From Oscillospiraceae bacterium (GTDB lineage: Bacteria; Bacillota; Clostridia; Oscillospirales; CAG-382): 64,000 nucleotides of DNA. The notes beneath the pieces were generated by a model, which was not told where the DNA came from, did no database searches, and worked only from the letters and a program-made list of their open reading frames with translations. Within the stretch, counting starts at the first letter, position 1. The number at the start of each line of letters is the position of its first letter. Positions 2,210 to 62,272 of this stretch are shown here, piece after piece. The position numbers and the translations under genes were made by a program. The DNA is taken from the NCBI GenBank assembly GCA_015064895.1, contig SVRI01000001.1, positions 202,787 to 266,786 of the forward strand, written 5' to 3'.

Positions 2210-3247
2210 TTATTCTTCTTCGTGAATGGGAGTGGGATCAAACTTTTCGGGTCTGAATAACCAGTTGTAGCAACGTCTTATGTGACGCATTCCGTCTTTG
2301 TGCCATGTACCGTCGTCCTCAACATCCTTTTCCTCCATACCGTCCATAAAGCTTCTTGCGGGAACCCATGTCGTCTCCATAACACCTAAGATGTTGTCGG
2401 AGCCGTGTTCTTTAGCATAGTCAAGGAAAAGCTTTGCATTTTCTGCAATGTTGAAGGGACACAGCCACATCTTAAAGCCCTTCTCTGCAAATACTTCAAC
2501 CGAACGGAAGTGACTCCAGTTGTGATAGTGCCAGTCGGTGATGATGAAGTCTTTGTCGAGAAGGTCAATTGCCGTCCATGTCTCGTTCTGGCTGGCATCC
2601 CAGGGGCCGTAGCCGAAATCAAAGGAGTTGAGAAGTCTGTCGCCCCACATCATGGGTACAGCTCCCTTTTCTTTGATATGCTTTGCAAGAGCATTGCACC
2701 ATTCGGCAAGAAGTTCTCCGTTGGTTTTGCCTGTTGCCTTGCATCTGTCGCACATGCCTATGTAGAATACTTCGTCAATGCCTATGTGCATGTACTTTGC
2801 TTCAAATGCATCCATAATTTCGTCCATAAGGTCAAGAACGATGGGCATAGCGTCGGGATGTGTGGGACACAAGCTGTAGCAGTATTCGGGCTTTTCTTCA
2901 ATGGGTGTTTCGGAAAGCTCGGGATGACCTTTTAAGAGCCCGTCGGGACGGGAATATTCCTGCACTGTCTGGTGACCGAGAAGATTCATGTCGGGGATAA
3001 GCTCGATGTTATGCTTGCGGCAAACAGAGAGCATCTTCTTGATGTCCTCTTTTGTAAGAGGAGCTTCGCCGCGGCATTCGGGGTGGCTCTCGAACATGTA
3101 GTTATATCTTATGATGAGAAGAATCGTGTCGATTCCGTCGGGAACAAGTTCTTTTTCGATAAAGTTGCAGAATCTGTCAACATCTTCGGGAATTGGTGCG
3201 AAAATGTTGAGACCTCTCTGCTTCCAAGGGTAGTTTGCAAGGCTCAT
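2210..3247 (-). CDS. glycoside hydrolase family 20-like (beta-N-acetylhexosaminidase catalytic domain), no signal peptide
   Basis: 345 aa; LLGHQ and MHIGIDEV (H-x-G-x-D-E type catalytic pair) recalled from GH20; AGGAGA RBS. Confidence 0.5.
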   Translation of the reverse strand: MSLANYPWKQRGLNIFAPIPEDVDRFCNFIEKELVPDGIDTILLIIRYNYMFESHPECRGEAPLTKEDIKKMLSVCRKHNIELIPDMNLLGHQTVQEYSRPDGLLKGHPELSETPIEEKPEYCYSLCPTHPDAMPIVLDLMDEIMDAFEAKYMHIGIDEVFYIGMCDRCKATGKTNGELLAEWCNALAKHIKEKGAVPMMWGDRLLNSFDFGYGPWDASQNETWTAIDLLDKDFIITDWHYHNWSHFRSVEVFAEKGFKMWLCPFNIAENAKLFLDYAKEHGSDNILGVMETTWVPARSFMDGMEEKDVEDDGTWHKDGMRHIRRCYNWLFRPEKFDPTPIHEEE

Positions 3248-5861: not shown

Positions 5862-6027
5862 TGTCGTTCCTCCTAACTTCTAACTCCTAAGCGGCGAGCC
5901 GCCGCAGGCAATTCACGGCATATGTTTGCAACAAACAAACCTTTGGTGTCGCGCAAACAACCCCGTTTGGTCGGCATAAACCCGACCGACCAAACTCTCT
6001 CCTAACTCCTAACTTCTAACTCCTAAC
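5862..6027. repeat. family-1 mosaic element (H7-D-linker-B-H7), fills the smpB-esterase spacer
   Basis: CTAACTY heptamers at 5872-5890 and 6001-6027; hairpin GCGGCGAGCCGCCGC (5891-5905); AATTCACGG (5910-5918); hairpin GTTTGGTCGG..CCGACCAAAC (5965-5996). An inverted, near-identical copy lies at 56814-57042. Confidence 0.9.
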
Positions 6028-6498
6028 TTACCTGTTTCTCTCTCTCATGGCACGTTCTATATCGCGGGCTGCCTGTTTCTTTGCCTCGGTATCGCGTTTG
6101 TCGTAGTTCTTTTTACCCTTGCAAAGACCAAGTTCAACCTTAACCTTGGAGCCTGAAAAGTACATTTTGAGGGGAATAAGCGTGTAACCCTCTTTACCGC
6201 ATAGACCGAAAAGCTTCATTATCTCCTTTTTGTGAAGCAGAAGTTTTCTTTCACGTCTCGGGTCTTTGTTGAAAATGTTGCCCTTTTCGTAGGGGCTGAT
6301 ATGTACGCCGTACATAATCATCTCGCCCTTTTCAACATGGCAGTAGGAGTCCTTCATGTTGACAGCACCCTGACGTATGCTCTTTACTTCAGTACCCGAT
6401 AGGGCAATGCCCGCTTCATATGTGTCCTCGACGAAATAGTCGTGGTATGCCTTTTTGTTCTGGGCTGCAATTTTTATGTTTTCGTTCTTGTCTGCCAC
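6028..6498 (-). CDS. smpB: SsrA-binding protein
   Basis: [33 protein letters not shown]... typical SmpB; GTG start. Confidence 0.95.
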
Positions 6499-8341: not shown

Positions 8342-8369
8342 AGGGTACAATGAAAAAATATTTCGAAAA

Positions 8370-8636
8370 AAGACTTTGACGGGAAAGAGTAGTAAAGAAA
8401 ACTGCCCACAGAGAGGATGCCGCAGGTGAAAGGCACCGCAAGAGCTTTATGAAAGTCATCCCCGAGTTTCTGCCCGAAGGTAACAAAGATTATTGTGTAG
8501 GCGCAGACGGTTTGTTACCGTTAAAAACAGAACCTTTTTACAAGGTAAGCGGTCGGTTTTTCCGGCAATCAGAGTGGTACCGCAGAGTGTTTTTATGACC
8601 TTTGTCTCTATTTGTTTGAGACAAAGGCTTTTACTA
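8370..8636 (+). promoter_or_regulatory. T-box riboswitch leader, probable Val (GUC) specifier
   Basis: AGTA box (8386-8393), AGAGA box (8408-8416), GGTGAAAG distal loop (8425-8433), GAAA-GTC-A specifier context (8451-8458), T-box AATCAGAGTGGTACCGCAG (8567-8585), terminator CCTTTGTCTC/GAGACAAAGG plus CTTTT (8599-8635). Confidence 0.85.
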
Positions 8637-10316: not shown

Positions 10317-10611
10317 CGGGGAGCCCCCGCGGGGAGCCCCCGCAGGCGTATCACGGGCAAGTTTCGCAATAAGCAAGCCCTCGTGGTCGCTTAAGTAACC
10401 CCGTTTGGTCGGCATAAATCCGACCGACCAAACTCAAACAGAATTTTAATCAGACAGTTCAAAAGTGGAATAGGGCTCGGCTATATAATAAAGAATATTT
10501 GCCCTCGGCAAATCCCCCCTAACACCTAACTCCTAACTTCTAACTTCTAACTTCTAACTTCTAACTTCTAACTCCTAACTCCTAACTCTTTTTCCCGGAG
10601 GTGAAAACACA
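10317..10611. repeat. family-1 mosaic element (D x2 - linker - B - spacer - H7 x10) between ilvB and ilvN
   Basis: GCGGGGAGCCCCCGC duplicated directly after the TAG stop; ATCACGG; hairpin GTTTGGTCGG..CCGACCAAAC (10403-10433); ten heptamers CTAACAC, CTAACTC, CTAACTT x5, CTAACTC x3 (10519-10588). Confidence 0.9.
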
Positions 10612-11115
10612 GTGGATGAAAAACAGTATTTAATATTACTTGTTGAAAACAACTCGGGTGTTCTCAGTAGAATCACATCTCTGTTTTGCCAGAGAGGCTT
10701 CAACATTGATTCCCTTAATGTTTCAACAACAGATAACCCCAAAATATCAAGAATAACAATCGTTACCCACGGTGACGAAAGAAAGTTCAGACAGATTATA
10801 CGTCAGACAGACAAGCTCATTGAGTCAAAGATGATTTTTGCCGTTGAGCCTTCCTTCAGCCTTCTTCGTGAATTGCTTCTTTTAAAGCTTGAAATGAACA
10901 GTGCCGAGGAAATTGCGGCGGCTGAGGCAGTATCAAGAAAATACGGCTGCAACATCATCGACCATTCCGTCGGAACTCTCGTACTTGAGTTTACAGGTAC
11001 GCCCGAAGAAATTGACGCACTTCTTGAGGATTGTAAGCAGTTCGGTATTCTCGAACTTTGCAGAACAGGTGTGACGGCACTTGAAAGAGGCAAGGTTTCT
11101 TATACACTTGACTAA
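10612..11115 (+). CDS. ilvN: acetolactate synthase, small (regulatory) subunit
   Basis: ACT domain LLVENNSGVLSRITSLFCQRGFNIDSLNVS; GTG start with GGAGGTG RBS. Confidence 0.9.
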   Translation: MDEKQYLILLVENNSGVLSRITSLFCQRGFNIDSLNVSTTDNPKISRITIVTHGDERKFRQIIRQTDKLIESKMIFAVEPSFSLLRELLLLKLEMNSAEEIAAAEAVSRKYGCNIIDHSVGTLVLEFTGTPEEIDALLEDCKQFGILELCRTGVTALERGKVSYTLD

Positions 11116-12168: not shown

Positions 12169-12380
12169 TCAGCGTTGCTTGAATTGAAATTATGCCTTCC
12201 CCTATCTCAGGGGAAGGTGTCAAAATCAAAGATTTTGACGGATGAGGTCTTGACAGACCAGGTGAAAGCAACCATCCATCTACCTCCTCAGTCACCTTGC
12301 GGTGACAGCTCCCCCTATGTATAGGGGAAGCCTGTATTGAATCTATTCAAAAATTTACAAGGGGGACTGTATGTTCCCCA
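12169..12380. repeat. family-2 element (Y then X) between ilvC and ilvD
   Basis: Y: GCCTTCCCC..GGGGAAGG (12194-12217), GTCAAAATC..GATTTTGAC (12219-12239), GGATGAGGT (12240-12248). X: ACCTCCTCAGTCACC-TTGC-GGTGACAGCTCCCCC-TATGTATA-GGGGAAGCC (12282-12332). Extra hairpin GGGGGA..TTCCCC (12361-12379). Confidence 0.9.
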
Positions 12381-21162: not shown

Positions 21163-21360
21163 GATGAACTAATTTAAGCCTTCCTCCCGGAGGAAGCCTT
21201 AGAGTAACACAATCTAACTAAGCCTTCCCCGTTGGGGAAGGTGGGTTGCGTCAGCAACTCGGATGAGGTTTGACGGATGAGGTTGAAATAATACACGGAT
21301 TGACCTCCTCAGTCACCTTTCGGTGACAGCTCCCCCTTCCCGAAGGGGAAGCCAAAAGCA
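21163..21360. repeat. family-2 element (hairpin, Y, then X) after the clp gene
   Basis: CTTCC..GGAAG (21180-21196); Y GCCTTCCCC-GTT-GGGGAAGGTGGGTTGCGTCAGCAACTCGGATGAGGT (21222-21269), with GGATGAGGT duplicated; X ACCTCCTCAGTCACC-TTTC-GGTGACAGCTCCCCC-TTCCCGAA-GGGGAAGCC (21303-21353). Confidence 0.9.
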
Positions 21361-25787: not shown

Positions 25788-25925
25788 ATTGGCTCCCTTG
25801 TGTAAAGGGAGCTGTCAGCCTTGTGCTGACTGAGGGATTGTGAATGGAACGGCAATTGCCAATCCCTCCGAGTTTTGCCATTTGGCAAAACCCACCTCCC
25901 TTTGCACAAGGGAGGCAAAGAGACA
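25788..25925. repeat. family-2 element, inverted orientation and GGGAGG variant, between hisD and hisC
   Basis: GGCTCCC..GGGAGC, TGTCAGC-CTTGT-GCTGAC, TGAGGGATTG..CAATCCCTC, GTTTTGCC-ATTT-GGCAAAAC, CCACCTCCC..GGGAGG; the reverse complement is colinear with Y-X copies. Confidence 0.85.
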
Positions 25926-27016: not shown

Positions 27017-27045
27017 ATGGCTCCCTTTATACAAGGGAGGCTTGG
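27017..27045. repeat. solo family-2 hairpin after hisC
   Basis: TAAATGGCTCCC-TTTATACAA-GGGAGGC; same opening as 25785-25815. Confidence 0.7.
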
Positions 27046-27768: not shown

Positions 27769-30030
27769 ATGTGGATTAATACCGAAAAACCGAGACTTGT
27801 ATGGATTGGCAACAAGAGACCTCTCAGCGAGGACGAACATATTACATATACAAAGAAAATAAATGCCGATAAAAAGGTAAAAAGTGTAGTTGTGCGTTTT
27901 GAAAACGACTCCTCCTGTGCCCTTTATGTCAACGGAAATTTCGTTATAAGCGGTAACGGCAGAACTCCCGAAAGAGTTAACTGCCATGAAATTACATCCC
28001 TTTTTACTGTGGGCGAAAATGAAATTAAAGTAACTCTTGACTCAGGTTATTTTCAGGGCAGAACAGAGGATATTTCACAGTTCAGAGGCTTCCGTTTCTC
28101 ATGCTTTGCCATGGAATTTGATATTGAATTCCAAGACGGCACAAAATTGGTTGTGCCCACAGATGCTACATGGATGACAGAGGTTGAGGGAAAGAATGTT
28201 CCTGCAGATGAGGCAATGGCTGTAACCGACGGTGAGTATAATAACTTCTGGAAGTATGCGACGGTATGGCTTGAAAAGAAGCTCCACAAGGCAGAAATTC
28301 CCGAGGCCGTAACAAAGACTGTCGGAGAAGAATACAAGACGTATGCAGAAAAGGATGTTCCGAAGTACGCGTATCCCGAAAAGGTAGTAAAAACAAACAT
28401 GATTCTTGTCGGCGACAAGTATGTTTCCGACGAAAATTGCGATGAAGCACCCTATATCATCTACGATTTTGTGACAACAAGAGTGGGCTTTACCGAATTT
28501 GAATATAAGACAGAAAATGATACCATCGCTACTCTTGGTTTTGACTTCAAGGAAAACATTGTTGACTTTGACCATGACCCCGACTGCGAGTGGACATATA
28601 TAATAAAGGCACTTGTAATCAAGCAGAAACTGCATGGGGGCGAACATAAGGATTTCAACATAAGACGCCGTGCTTTCAGACTTTTGAAGGTGGAATTTGA
28701 AAAGGGTGCGAGGGTTGAAATCGGAAATGTAAGAATTCTCCAGTGCCTGTACCCCAACATGAAGGAAGGCTGGTTTGACTGCTCAGACGACAGGCTAAAC
28801 AAGTTTTGGGAAATGGGCAAGTACACACTTCATGTAAACAAGCAGCAGGAATACGAAAGCTGTCCCAGAAACGAAATGCTCTTTTTCTCGGGCGACGGTC
28901 TTCTTGACATGGTTGTTGACCTTTATGCCTTCGGCGAAGAAAAGCTTATGGAAAGCTCGCTTAGTCTCAATCATTCCGAGGCGGCAAGCGGCATTGCAAG
29001 CTCTGAGGACTTCAACAGAATCCGCCATCAGTGGGACTACTACGCATGGCGTGTTGTCTGCGTTGAATATTATTACAAAACAACCGGTAATAAGGAATTT
29101 TTGAAGAAATTTTTTGCACAGACAGAATCCGTCCTCAAGTGGCAGATTAACAGAATGGGCTACAACAACCTTATTTTCCAGCCCATGTGCATGATTTCTA
29201 CATATACCTTCGGCTATGCTCAGGTTGACTGGGCGTGCGGTATAGGCAGACTCGGCGACAAGCCGTATCTAAACGCACTTCTTTACAAGAGCCTGACGGC
29301 AATGTCTTATCTTGCAAAGGAACTCGGTGAAGATGCAAAGGCAAAAGAATGGGACGAGCTTGCAGAAAAGGTAAAGGATGCTATTAACAATGAACTCTGG
29401 AGTGAGGAAAAGCAGTCATATGTAGACAAGATGGCTGACTACATCTCCCACGACGGAAATCTTATACCTCTCTACTTCGGCGTTGCAGACGAAAAGAGAA
29501 CCAAAGCGGCTCTCGACACAATAAAGCGTGAGCTGTGGACACCTGCAGGTGCTGCAATTCTTAACAAGCCCATGAAGGACGTAAGAGGCGGAAATGTTGC
29601 GGTTTCTCCCTTTATGAGCTGTTTTGAATCGGAACTGAGATTTTTGAACGGTGATGAAGAAGGCGGTCTTGAAGTAATAAGACGTGTATGGGGTGCAATG
29701 CTCGACAGAGGTGCACACACCTGCTGGGAATATGTTCCCGTAGAAGAAGGCAAGTGGTGGGATGCTCTTTGCCACGCATGGGCAACAGGCTGTACATATC
29801 TTCTTTCGGCATATGTTCTGGGTATCAGAATGACAAAGCCTAACTTTACGGGAATTGTATTTGAACCTAAGCTCTGCGGACTTGAATATGCAAGAGGCGT
29901 TGTTCCCTGCGAAGGCGGATTTATTGCGGCTAAGTGTGAAAACGGAAAGTATACTCTCAGTGTGCCCAAAGGAACTGAGGTTGAAGTTAAGGTTCCCGAT
30001 GGCAGTGAAGTTGAAATTATAAGATACTGA
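27769..30030 (+). CDS. alpha-L-rhamnosidase-like (GH78-type, six-hairpin) glycosidase, cytoplasmic
   Basis: N-terminal region resembles the rhamnosidase N domain (ALYVNGNFVISG...GENEIKVTLDSGYF); C-terminal (alpha/alpha)6-like ...AVSPFMSCFESELRFLNGDEEGGLEVIRRVWGAMLDRGAHTCWEY; AAGGTGGA RBS before ATG 27769. Confidence 0.6.
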   Translation: MWINTEKPRLVWIGNKRPLSEDEHITYTKKINADKKVKSVVVRFENDSSCALYVNGNFVISGNGRTPERVNCHEITSLFTVGENEIKVTLDSGYFQGRTEDISQFRGFRFSCFAMEFDIEFQDGTKLVVPTDATWMTEVEGKNVPADEAMAVTDGEYNNFWKYATVWLEKKLHKAEIPEAVTKTVGEEYKTYAEKDVPKYAYPEKVVKTNMILVGDKYVSDENCDEAPYIIYDFVTTRVGFTEFEYKTENDTIATLGFDFKENIVDFDHDPDCEWTYIIKALVIKQKLHGGEHKDFNIRRRAFRLLKVEFEKGARVEIGNVRILQCLYPNMKEGWFDCSDDRLNKFWEMGKYTLHVNKQQEYESCPRNEMLFFSGDGLLDMVVDLYAFGEEKLMESSLSLNHSEAASGIASSEDFNRIRHQWDYYAWRVVCVEYYYKTTGNKEFLKKFFAQTESVLKWQINRMGYNNLIFQPMCMISTYTFGYAQVDWACGIGRLGDKPYLNALLYKSLTAMSYLAKELGEDAKAKEWDELAEKVKDAINNELWSEEKQSYVDKMADYISHDGNLIPLYFGVADEKRTKAALDTIKRELWTPAGAAILNKPMKDVRGGNVAVSPFMSCFESELRFLNGDEEGGLEVIRRVWGAMLDRGAHTCWEYVPVEEGKWWDALCHAWATGCTYLLSAYVLGIRMTKPNFTGIVFEPKLCGLEYARGVVPCEGGFIAAKCENGKYTLSVPKGTEVEVKVPDGSEVEIIRY

Positions 30031-30032
30031 TA

Positions 30033-30595
30033 AAAAAACGAGTTTGCACCGTTGCGTTTATGCGGTGCAAACGGAACACTAATCGAGAAACAAAGATTTA
30101 AAAACAAGGAAAAGCAGAAAAGGTGACAAATGCGAGTTCTTTTCCTACTTTTCTGCGAAAGGCGGCGGGTCGCCGCTGACAATTCACGGGGTGTTAAAAG
30201 ATAGAATTACCGCCACGGATGTCGCATAACAAATATGTAAAAAAACTTCTTGAGTTTGCACCGTTGCGTTTATGCGGTGCAAACGGAGTATCAATCGAGA
30301 AACAAAGATTTAAAAACAAGGAAAAGCAGAAAAGGTGACAAATGCGAGTTCTTTTGCCTACTTTTCTGCGAAAGGCGGCGGGTCGCCGCTGACAATTCAC
30401 GGGGTGTTAAAAGATAGAATTACCGCCACGGATGTCGCATAACAAATATGTAAAAAACTTCTTGAGTTTGCACCGTTGCGTTTATGCGGTGCAAACGGAG
30501 TATCAATCGAGAAACAAAGATTTAAAAACAAGGAAAAGCAGAAAAGGTGACAAGTGCGAGTTCTTTTGCCTACTTTTCTGCGAAAGAAAAGTAGG
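30033..30595 (+). repeat. tandem array, 212-bp unit x about 2.6 (family-1 modules B-C-D-linker)
   Basis: GAGTTTGCACCG starts at 30040, 30252 and 30464 (period 212). Units differ by a few substitutions and 1-nt indels. The last unit ends in a hairpin abutting the hisH ATG. Confidence 0.95.
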
Positions 30596-31240: not shown

Positions 31241-31361
31241 ACCTCCTCAGTCAGCTTTCGCTGACAGCTCCCCCTGAAAGCAGGGGAAGCCTTAGTAACA
31301 ATGACTAACAAAAGCCTTCCCTTTTGGGGAAGGTGGGTTGCGTTAGCAACTCGGATGAGGT
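31241..31361 (+). repeat. family-2 element (X then Y), 121 bp, between hisH and hisA
   Basis: ACCTCCTCAGTCAGC-TTTC-GCTGACAGCTCCCCC-TGAAAGCA-GGGGAAGCC-TTAGTAACAATGACTAACAAAA-GCCTTCCC..GGGGAAGGTGGGTTGC-GTTA-GCAACTCGGATGAGGT; twin of 33619-33743. Confidence 0.95.
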
Positions 31362-32128: not shown

Positions 32129-32529
32129 AGTGCAGAAAGTTATGTAAGGAGAATCTTGCACTCTTCGAAGTACGTTTTCCGTACTTTTGTCCCGAAACAA
32201 AAGTACCAAAAATTCTCCACTCAACAAGAGGAGATGGGCGGCAAGTTGCCGCTGACAAACCGTCATTTTGACGGCATACCGAAAACCGTCAAAATGACAA
32301 ATACTGCTGTCGGGCTATCCCGACTCTGCGCTGACTTCCCCTCTTTTGCCGTGGAGGCTTAACTCCCCTCACTGGGTGTAGTGCAAGTTTGAAGCGATGA
32401 GTTTGGTCGGTTGCGTTTATGCCGACCAAACGGAATAAAAATCGAGTGATATAATATAGATAAACAAGGAGAGCGAGAAAGGTGACAAATGCGAGTTCTT
32501 TTGCTTACTTTTCTCCGAAAGAAAAGTAA
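32129..32529. repeat. 400-bp composite of family-1 modules (C-like hairpin, D, extra hairpins, B, C) between hisA and hisF
   Basis: GTACTTTTG-TCCCGAAA-CAAAAGTAC (32181-32206); GGCGGCAAGTTGCCGC (32237-32252); GTCATTTTGACGG..CCGTCAAAATGAC (32261-32298); GTCGGG..CCCGAC; B GAGTTTGGTCGG..CCGACCAAACGG (32399-32432); C ending CTTACTTTTC-TCCGAAA-GAAAAGTAAG (32504-32530). Confidence 0.9.
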
Positions 32530-33618: not shown

Positions 33619-33743
33619 ACCTCCTCAGTCAGCTTTCGCTGACAGCTCCCCCTTTGTGAAAGGGGAAGCCTTAGTAACAATGACTAACAAAAGCCTTCCC
33701 ATTTTAAGGGGAAGGTGGGTTGCGTCAGCAACTCGGATGAGGT
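33619..33743 (+). repeat. family-2 element (X then Y), 125 bp, between hisI and hisE
   Basis: Same stems and linker as 31241-31361; begins 1 nt after the hisI TAG. Confidence 0.95.
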
Positions 33744-37439: not shown

Positions 37440-37652
37440 TACCTTTATAAAAAAATATGGAATTTTCTTTATACGATGCCAAAAAATATTTATGACAAAA
37501 TCTGTCTCATTTTCTTTTATTCCTGTCGGGAATGTTTTATGAACATTTGATATAATGATGAACTCCGGTGAAATCTGCCGAAAAACGGCAGGTGAAATCA
37601 CTACGTGGTGAAATATTGCTTCGCAATATGAAATATCCGCTTAAAGCGAAAG

Positions 37653-62115: not shown

Positions 62116-62272
62116 GAATTAGGAATTAGGAATTAGGAATGAGTTTGGTCGGTGGCGTTTATGCCGACCAAACGGTATAATAATCGAGAAATAAAAACGG
62201 AAGAAAAATAGGAAAATTAGGTGCTCGGTGCGAGTTCTTTTTGCCTACTTTTTCTCCGAAAGAAAAAGTAGG
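62113..62272 (+). repeat. family-1 element (H7 x4 - B - C) spanning exactly from the DUF512 stop to the der RBS
   Basis: TAGGAAT x4 (62113-62140; the first TAG is the stop codon); B GAGTTTGGTCGG..CCGACCAAACGG (62141-62175); AATCGAG plus purine tract; hairpin CCTACTTTTTC-TCCGAAA-GAAAAAGTAGG (62244-62272). Confidence 0.93.

Follow-up and report, generated by a model that had tools for sequence, protein, structure and literature searches.

Palindromic repeat units in the operon spacers of an Oscillospiraceae bacterium, probably propagated by a DUF559 predicted nuclease

A stretch of 64,000 nucleotides from an Oscillospiraceae bacterium (assembly GCA_015064895.1, contig SVRI01000001.1; hereafter the window) carries, in the spacers between its housekeeping genes, copies of a hairpin-rich element composed of two modules, X and Y. 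A sequence-only reading of this DNA had taken the element for a discrete four-hairpin structured RNA, possibly a processed one, and the question raised by the locus is what kind of entity the element really is. We show here that the X/Y element consists of a single palindromic DNA repeat unit of about 50 nt, present as an inverted pair and belonging to an interspersed intergenic family, and that in other genomes the same repeat units bound a conserved cassette encoding a DUF559 protein. The best explanation of the whole is a palindromic DNA repeat with a DUF559 partner, of which the X/Y elements are gene-less doublets on which the predicted nuclease would act in trans; we place the probability of this explanation at roughly 0.6.

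Alignment of X with the reverse complement of Y revealed homologous copies of a single unit lying in opposite orientations. Each unit comprises, in order, a tail (c)ACCTCATC, a variable hairpin A, two to three bases and a conserved hairpin B. In the window the tail reads ACCTC(C/A)TC, the stem of hairpin A is variable and hairpin B is C(T/C)TCCCC-loop-GGGGAAG, while the canonical consensus from other genomes is cACCTCATC(C/A)G-hairpin A-CA(C/G)C-TTCCCC-TCAA-GGGGAAG(G/C)C. A single search pattern covering both types (ACCTCMTC-N10-35-CYYCCCC-N3-12-GGGAAGSC) matched eight window units, four on the plus strand (X) and four on the minus strand (Y), where 100 shuffles gave an expectation of zero. 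The distinction between X and Y is real, in that they form two discrete types of the same unit: in both families of the repeat described below, position 9 is A in X and C in Y, the closing pair of hairpin B is G-C in X and C-G in Y, and recombinants between the two are nearly absent. Likewise, the tails ACCTCCTCA and GGATGAGGT are indeed complementary, but the “closing” or “bridging” helix that had been drawn between them is a trivial result of the units standing as an inverted repeat. Both of the proposed arrangements, X-Y and Y-X, are present. The 22-nt linker between X and Y forms a fifth small hairpin, TTAGT/ACTAA, which appears at 21199-21221 with a compensatory change as TTAGA/TCTAA, and when the element is folded the tail helix is predicted together with five local hairpins (z score -4.3 as DNA and -6.4 as RNA).

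The manner in which the stems vary is informative about the nature of the element. Across 145 distinct units, in an alignment that was fitted to the model structure and whose counts consequently lean towards structure, 97.5% of cells were standard pairs, 11 of the 14 pairs had changed on both sides, and 280 cells carried double changes, as against 77 ± 10 after shuffling and no more than 25 with the partners slid, so that the covariation proposed from the window copies is amply borne out. A structure-blind test agrees, with the best stem in the hairpin A region averaging 5.3 bp versus 3.6 bp after shuffling, and 82 distinct hairpin A stems were found. One-sided (wobble) changes were confined to 4 of 1935 cells; near-pure Watson-Crick pairing of this kind is expected of a DNA palindrome and unusual for an RNA. 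The loops are also strand-asymmetric. Of 124 hairpin A triloops, 79 are TNC and five GNA, which places cGNAg loops on the complementary strand, and the hairpins are closed by a C-G pair in 177 of 198 cases. The cGNAg loop is a hyperstable DNA mini-hairpin, and its asymmetry suggests that the strand reading hairpin B-hairpin A-GGATGAGGT adopts a single-stranded DNA form. Moreover, the orientation of units relative to flanking genes is unbiased (39 same, 33 antisense). The combination of near-pure Watson-Crick covariation, both orientations and loop asymmetry speaks for the units as DNA palindromes, akin to repetitive extragenic palindromic (REP) sequences and bacterial interspersed mosaic elements (BIMEs) or to miniature inverted-repeat transposable elements (MITEs), rather than as an RNA gene.

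A covariance model, R1, was built solely from 14 units of other genomes, and detects divergent units in one related locus (L204) that the search pattern missed. Run on the window with filters off, R1 recovered the same eight units (E 1e-10 to 1.5e-6) together with a variant at 25789-25842 (E 5e-5) and nothing further in the 64 kb, so that the list of copies in the sequence-only reading, every string of which we found where it had been placed, is complete. Beyond the window, R1 gave 216 matches in 99 genome loci and the window combined. The search pattern occurs in at least 120 stretches of species-representative genomes, with Oscillospiraceae, Acutalibacteraceae, Lachnospiraceae, Christensenellales, Eubacterium, Faecalibacterium, Selenomonas/Schwartzia and two Bifidobacterium species among the matches listed, and viral contigs hold at least 120 stretches for each of two families. 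The repeat is therefore spread very widely in Clostridia and is also present in Negativicutes, Bifidobacterium and phage-like contigs, which confirms the suspected conservation across genera and extends it to several Clostridia families and beyond. Two of the window loci, the copy at 25788-25925 and the solo hairpin at 27019-27041, represent a sister family 2, as widespread as family 1, with tail AATCCCTC and hairpin B CTCCCTT..AAGGGAG. A third variant, whose tail is CCCTCATC and whose hairpin B, CTTCTCC/GGAGAAG, is a compensatory form of CTTCCCC/GGGGAAG, occurs in both halves of a doublet in L204 (581-751); its presence in both halves suggests that tail and hairpin B variants travel together as sub-families.

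No known family accounts for these repeats. Rfam returned no match on the elements, either at the gathering threshold and at E up to 10 on the window or at the gathering threshold on 18 canonical loci, and a Pfam search of the spurious open reading frames (ORFs) that the units create matched no family. In the literature searched, the hairpin B 16-18-mers were absent, two tail 10-mers gave unrelated matches only, and neither the repeat family nor a link between DUF559 and repeats is described. The sequence-only reading had named a string typical of such spurious ORFs in other genomes, and the string proved exact: one genome locus (L009) holds DNA translating to PHQSASLTASPQGEA, and database proteins carry PSPQGEGG..DEVE and TSSVTSWQLPLKGKPL extensions.

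The distribution of units within genomes is that of an interspersed repeat. They occur singly, as inverted pairs and in direct arrays: among neighbors at most 400 nt apart in the genome loci, 38 pairs have their tails facing inward, 21 have them facing outward and two are direct, while in phage-like contigs (L296, L298, L318, L303, L317) the units often all lie on one strand, a tight direct array at 12746-12973 of L298 being an example. All window copies are in spacers between co-directional, plus-strand housekeeping genes. In a relative whose HisA is 84% identical to that of the window (L207), the clpC|NTP-transferase junction is 21 nt as against 248 nt in the window, the hisH|hisA junction is 5-6 nt as against 174 nt, the hisI|hisE junction is 3-4 nt as against about 140-170 nt, and hisC and hisB overlap where the window has 73 nt between them. 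Closer relatives (L204-L206, HisA 88-91%) have the same junctions filled by unrelated repeat families, one such junction carrying a 23S_rRNA_IVP gene cassette, and the third-variant doublet of L204 occupies a site that is empty in the window. These comparisons reveal insertion polymorphism and show the copies in the ilv, clp and his spacers of the window to be lineage-specific insertions. A clean empty site did not emerge, as ilvC contigs from other samples carry an identical ilvC-ilvD spacer and the junctions of relatives at 84-91% HisA identity are compact or otherwise filled, with neither alignable breakpoints nor a target-site duplication. The elements show operon junctions in these genomes to be insertion hot spots, which related lineages fill with other repeat families. 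The 23S_rRNA_IVP (PF05635) gene is found in these relatives at L204 9548-10000, L205 13401-13781 and L206 3794-4174; in L204 it fills the hisH|hisA spacer between its own inverted repeats, cggagtgcggagttcggaatg and cattccacattccgcactccgaattc, and may represent a second small-gene cassette with derived repeats.

A candidate partner of the units emerged from their neighborhood. Clustering of 724 ORFs from 120 unit-selected genome loci yielded one specific recurrent neighbor, a gene of about 121 codons; UvrA-like ABC ATPases also recur beside units but are ordinary in this respect. The neighbor is a DUF559 gene (Pfam PF04480, E 4e-30) encoding a Vsr-like predicted nuclease of the PD-(D/E)XK type, and tblastn places it near units in 8 of the 120 unit-selected loci and in none of 84 his-operon loci. 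In seven of the eight, a reverse-oriented unit lies directly upstream and its reverse-complemented tail, GATGAGGTG, stands 4-11 nt before the ATG; judged from sequence and position, the tail of the unit is the ribosome-binding site of the gene. The usual pattern at the other end, seen for example in L004, L043 and L123, is for the ORF to end inside the downstream unit (..TSSVTS*). DUF559 is the sole gene that we found snugly (349-447 nt) between inward-facing tails. The association is equally apparent from the protein side, where a database search gave at least 8000 homologues, and more than 120 clusters at 86-93% identity, many on short contigs. All 12 of the proteins read out have the downstream unit's tail within their C-terminus, and in six of the 12 an N-terminal extension is the translated upstream unit, so that mis-extended annotations (PSPQGEGGPLAVDEVE-M.. 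at the N-terminus, ..TSSVTSWQLPLKGKPL at the C-terminus) are translations of the flanking units. The cassette was confirmed in L208-L218, and contigs fetched from the protein side show the order Y-gene-X in two unrelated genomes.

This arrangement is constrained. The upstream unit is kept down to 48% DUF559 protein identity, and a dN/dS of 0.07-0.12 at dS 0.6-1.2 shows that purifying selection on the gene is strong. Over the same divergence the flanking X unit is identical save for at most one loop base; since synonymous sites are near saturation, the flanks of the cassette must be constrained as well. One DUF559 protein, P0108, is encoded at one single locus in 22 contigs from many samples. 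In a further locus (L106) only the first 74 nt of the DUF559 gene are left between two units, which is a deletion intermediate of the cassette. The fold of the DUF559 protein predicted by AlphaFold is closest to 3HRL, followed by the catalytic domain of I-Bth0305I (3R3P; Foldseek TM 0.78, E 4e-5), the closest fold of known function, with Vsr further down, and the catalytic residues D51, E62, D64 and H68 (D..ExD..H) are invariant in 33 homologues. On plasmids, only distant DUF559 homologues (below 60% identity) were found. A promoter-like module, TTGACA-N16-TATAyA, framed by the inverted repeat ttttttgtccct / agggacaaaaaa, adjoins several of the cassettes (L004 590-640; L046 160-230 and about 640-680; L106 3080-3140; L218 10500-10540). 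The cassette contig L208 comes from the same samples as the window and has the same GC content, but was rejected as part of the window organism because its tetranucleotide correlation with the window is 0.68, as against 0.93-0.95 for true relatives.

These observations enabled us to propose a model in which Y-spacer-X doublets would be gene-less derivatives or relatives of the DUF559 cassette. The predicted DUF559 nuclease would act in trans on the DNA structure formed by hairpin plus tail, and copies of the unit would then spread or persist through copying initiated by a nick or break, in parallel with REPINs, the inverted REP doublets, and their REP-associated tyrosine transposases (RAYTs), or with a homing endonuclease and its sites. 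On this basis, the X/Y doublets of the window are probably propagated by a DUF559 nuclease. Effects on mRNA folding or stability are also likely, because the copies are co-transcribed inside operons, and these would be side effects rather than the reason for which the element exists.

Several points weigh against the model. The nuclease activity of DUF559 is predicted and mobilization of the units by it is something that we infer; to our knowledge, DUF559 is not among the known transposase families, and the AlphaFold prediction has a moderate pLDDT of 76. The window is without a DUF559 gene by tblastn, none turned up among the 120 family-1 viral loci, which hold 259 units, and a cassette of the window organism's own, should there be one, was not found, L208 belonging to another genome. 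Most doublet spacers have no similarity to the ends of the DUF559 gene. A target-site duplication is not visible at 31241-31361 and 33619-33743, the only two copies that are comparable, and the same-strand direct arrays of viral contigs are ill-suited to a simple terminal-inverted-repeat model. To these must be added the lean of the covariation counts noted above.

Four other explanations were considered. Were the units mobilized by a different enzyme, such as a RAYT or an IS200/IS605-type Y1 HUH transposase working on single-stranded hairpins, with DUF559 as a passenger or preferred neighbor, then the REP-like build, the conserved 5′ motif beside a hairpin, the inverted doublets, the strand-asymmetric cGNAg loops that suggest a single-stranded DNA form, and the frequency with which CTAC/GTAG abuts the tail would all be as expected; the same-strand arrays of the phage-like contigs likewise recall strand-specific insertion of single-stranded DNA. 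Nonetheless we regard this as unlikely. A tblastn search with an IS200 TnpA query, run over roughly 4 Mb of unit-rich loci with E allowed up to 1, found none, although such a search is weak for distant RAYTs, and no gene other than DUF559 was found fitted between units. A passenger would also hardly be integrated so tightly, with a tail for its ribosome-binding site and a stop codon inside a unit, down to the protein identities given above, nor would the flanking units be conserved while synonymous sites approach saturation. Slightly less probable again, in our estimation, is the structured RNA of the sequence-only reading, in which the tail helix would close off four or five hairpins to give a stable processed small RNA, or a stabilizer or processing site of operon mRNAs. 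The window copies all lie inside co-directional operons and hence must be transcribed, the predicted fold is stable (-59.1 kcal/mol, five hairpins and the closing helix, at the RNA z score already given), the covariation is strong, and REP elements are known to stabilize upstream mRNA. However, a preference for one orientation with respect to the genes is lacking, four one-sided changes stand against 280 double ones, Rfam offers no match even at E up to 10, and four window X copies have a C.A mismatch on the transcribed strand. Units that also stand singly and in direct arrays, at copy numbers and with an insertion polymorphism that fit a repeat and not a gene, and that are tied to a gene for a predicted nuclease, speak against a discrete structured RNA, and this part of the original proposal is not supported.

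Two further explanations are more remote. The doublets could be a target, with DUF559 as a free-standing homing endonuclease gene that invades the tail-to-tail junction of repeats that spread by other means. Here the likeness of the fold to I-Bth0305I, nearest among characterized proteins, the exact filling of the tail-to-tail space by the gene, and a duplicated 3′ gene fragment beside E. coli ycjD are suggestive, yet we consider it improbable, for L106 is an internal deletion of the gene and not an empty site, the constancy of the P0108 locus across many samples is unlike active homing, and the spread of the repeats themselves would be left unexplained. Least probable is that the units serve mainly as host transcription terminators, insulators or protein-binding sites and that the link to DUF559 is incidental. 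Hairpin B is certainly GC-rich, with a stem of 8-9 bp; the two positions that follow it are most often T (68% and 61%), and at least four T occur in the next 6 nt in 25% of units (n=152), compared with 8-10% of controls. The remaining 75% have no T run, and such a role would account neither for the conserved tail and the X/Y dichotomy nor for sequence identity across phyla. For the window copies a terminator role was rejected, as they have no T run and are sited inside operons. The preferred reading, a palindromic repeat with a DUF559 partner, is the one against which the individual copies of the window are described below.

In all, the 64 kb contain ten units and two solo hairpins, every one of them intergenic and together forming islands of 45-59% G+C in a window of 44%. 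The ilvC|ilvD spacer holds the copy at 12181-12332. Its Y unit (family 1, minus strand, 12194-12248; R1 42.7 bits, E 2.6e-10) reads on the plus strand as hairpin B (12194-12217), hairpin A GTCAAAATC/GATTTTGAC (12219-12239) and tail GGATGAGGT (12240-12248). The spacer between the two inward-facing tails, 12249-12281, is the position held by the DUF559 gene in full cassettes elsewhere, and it is followed by a family-1 X unit on the plus strand (12282-12332, R1 42.4 bits) with tail ACCTCCTCA, hairpin A GTCACC/GGTGAC and hairpin B GCTCCCCC/GGGGAAGC, the latter with one C.A mismatch. The clpC-like|NTP-transferase spacer contains the copy at 21178-21353, which begins on the plus strand with a solo hairpin-B-like remnant, GCCTTCCTCC/GGAGGAAGCC, and the TTAGA/TCTAA linker hairpin (together 21178-21221, the remnant itself being 21178-21198), where R1 has a weak partial match at 21180-21196. 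A family-1 Y unit with hairpin A GTTGC/GCAAC follows on the minus strand (21222-21283, R1 32.2 bits) and makes a tails-in doublet with a family-1 X unit on the plus strand (21303-21353, R1 40.7 bits). The tail of this Y unit, GACGGATGAGGT, is doubled in tandem (21257-21269 and 21271-21283), which resembles a minor scar of slippage or repair where the element ends.

The remaining copies lie in the his operon and its surroundings. In the hisD|hisC spacer (25788-25925), a sister-family-2 X unit on the minus strand (25791-25839; R1 23.8 bits, E 5e-5, for the match spanning 25789-25842) comprises AATCCCTCA, hairpin A GTCAGC/GCTGAC and hairpin B GCTCCCTT/AAGGGAGC, and stands tails-in with a family-2 Y unit on the plus strand (25861-25916) made up of AATCCCTCCG, hairpin A GTTTTGCC/GGCAAAAC and hairpin B CCTCCCTT/AAGGGAGG. 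The hisC|hisB spacer (copy 27017-27045) has only a solo family-2 hairpin B, GGCTCCCTT tatac AAGGGAGGC, at 27019-27041. The hisH|hisA spacer carries 31241-31361, a tails-out doublet of a family-1 X unit on the plus strand (31241-31291, R1 44.1 bits), a linker with its own hairpin TTAGT/ACTAA (31292-31313) and a family-1 Y unit on the minus strand found by the pattern (31314-31361). The spacer between hisI and the next gene carries the matching copy 33619-33743, with X on the plus strand (33619-33670, R1 41.8 bits), a linker hairpin identical to the first (33671-33692) and Y on the minus strand (33693-33743, R1 30.6 bits), both of family 1. The two copies are identical, loops apart, from AACCTCCTC to GGATGAGGT, and their homology stops exactly at the tails, the flanks being unrelated. 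Tails, stems and linker are the same and the only differences are in the length and sequence of three hairpin loops, so that the loops seem to change much faster than the rest of the element.

Other repeats and RNAs are also present nearby. A further repeat family of the window (30028-30586, 32387-32521 and 62138-62241) has a 212-nt unit in three tandem and two dispersed copies, each just upstream of a gene and with a hairpin that covaries between GAGTTTGCACCG/CGGTGCAAAC and GAGTTTGGTCGG/CCGACCAAAC; Rfam, searched at E up to 10 over part of the window, gives no match for it there. Arrays of the heptamers CTAACTT/CTAACTC stand directly upstream of a ribosome-binding site at 5863-6029 and 10509-10595, and related genomes have other heptamers (AATTAGG, CCCTAAT) at similar positions (L124 1-60, L204 500-530, L208 about 10630-10665). 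The Gut-1 RNA (RF01706) occurs on the plus strand of the window at 37566-37639 (65.8 bits) and on the minus strand of L075 at 3079-3153 (72.4 bits), and a T-box leader lies at 8367-8612 of the window.

The palindromic repeats litter the dominant Clostridia genomes of gut and rumen, where they break metagenome assemblies, with many copies at contig ends, and give rise to spurious “hypothetical proteins” in their thousands; with R1 or a similar model annotators would be able to mask them. If confirmed, service as the partner protein of a repeat would be a new role for DUF559, and the system would be a second, independent partnership between a protein and palindromic repeats besides that of RAYTs and REPINs. 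The repeat family thereby offers a testable function for DUF559/YcjD, a widespread family of orphan nucleases, and a small nuclease recognizing a defined DNA structure of hairpin plus tail might also find use as a reagent.

In behavior the repeats resemble REP/BIME elements (REPINs) or MITEs, but they fail two hallmarks of the REP/RAYT system, the GTAG motif and the Y1 transposase. As in REP sequences, the units are short, GC-rich, imperfect palindromes that are intergenic and present in many copies (PMC3116915, PMC3337134), and two unit types alternate in orientation and form inverted doublets. Here too a lone protein-coding gene lies between two inverted units, the same argument that led to the identification of RAYTs (PMC3116915, PMC3337134), and as with RAYTs that gene is under purifying selection at a fixed locus. 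In contrast, the conserved 5′ motif is (c)ACCTCATC rather than GTAG, CTAC being merely a frequent neighbor, the unit of the window family has two hairpins, and the flanked gene encodes a Vsr-like PD-(D/E)XK protein rather than a Y1 HUH transposase. Furthermore, the hosts here are Firmicutes and Actinobacteria rather than Enterobacteria and Pseudomonas, and the family crosses phyla and extends to phage-like contigs, where the inheritance of REPIN-RAYT systems is described as vertical (PMC3116915, PMC3337134).

The comparison with MITEs is similarly mixed. Like the pneumococcal BOX and RUP and the Neisseria Correia/NEMIS elements, the repeats are modular, hairpin-forming and intergenic, and are co-transcribed with their neighbors (PMC3049150, PMC2267715); terminal inverted repeats bound the copied segment shared by 31241-31361 and 33619-33743, and there is a longer gene-carrying relative in the DUF559 cassette, which has the same units, facing tails-in, and in L106 a partial gene. 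Unlike MITEs, the two copies compared have no target-site duplication, single units and direct arrays occur, and the cassette gene encodes no known transposase. The DUF559 protein itself has intact catalytic residues and matches in predicted fold I-Bth0305I (PDB 3R3P) and, less closely, Vsr (1VSR/1CW0), but differs from both as a stand-alone protein of 121 aa that has no separate DNA-binding domain and is encoded outside any intron or intein.

A further parallel is that of E. coli ycjD, itself a DUF559 gene (L339; K-12 NC_000913.3, 1351000-1351840). Upstream of it lies a perfect 16-bp hairpin, CACCTCATTCTGACAA/TTGTCAGAATGAGGTG, which covers the GTG start and contains ACCTCAT/ATGAGGTG, and the 3′ end of the gene lies inside a GC-rich pyrimidine/purine palindrome, followed by the duplicated 3′ gene fragment. 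Beyond this fragment is a dispersed repeat, with a per-genome median of 16 places in E. coli, that is probably boxC. BoxC is reported to have been discovered upstream of envM/fabI. A published listing gives it 22-32 copies (PMC2267715). The ycjD/boxC palindromes are not homologous in sequence to the window unit, nothing in L339 is matched by R1, and the case is a single locus. Even so, the position of ycjD between palindromes suggests, from this one locus, that the association of DUF559 with palindromes is perhaps general. As a tentative extension, which we hold to be possible though somewhat doubtful, DUF559 proteins including YcjD could be the trans-acting nucleases of a second REPIN-like system with a mechanism unlike that of REPINs and RAYTs, recognizing tail-plus-hairpin DNA and thereby maintaining or spreading the palindromic repeats of gut and rumen Firmicutes, and perhaps boxC.

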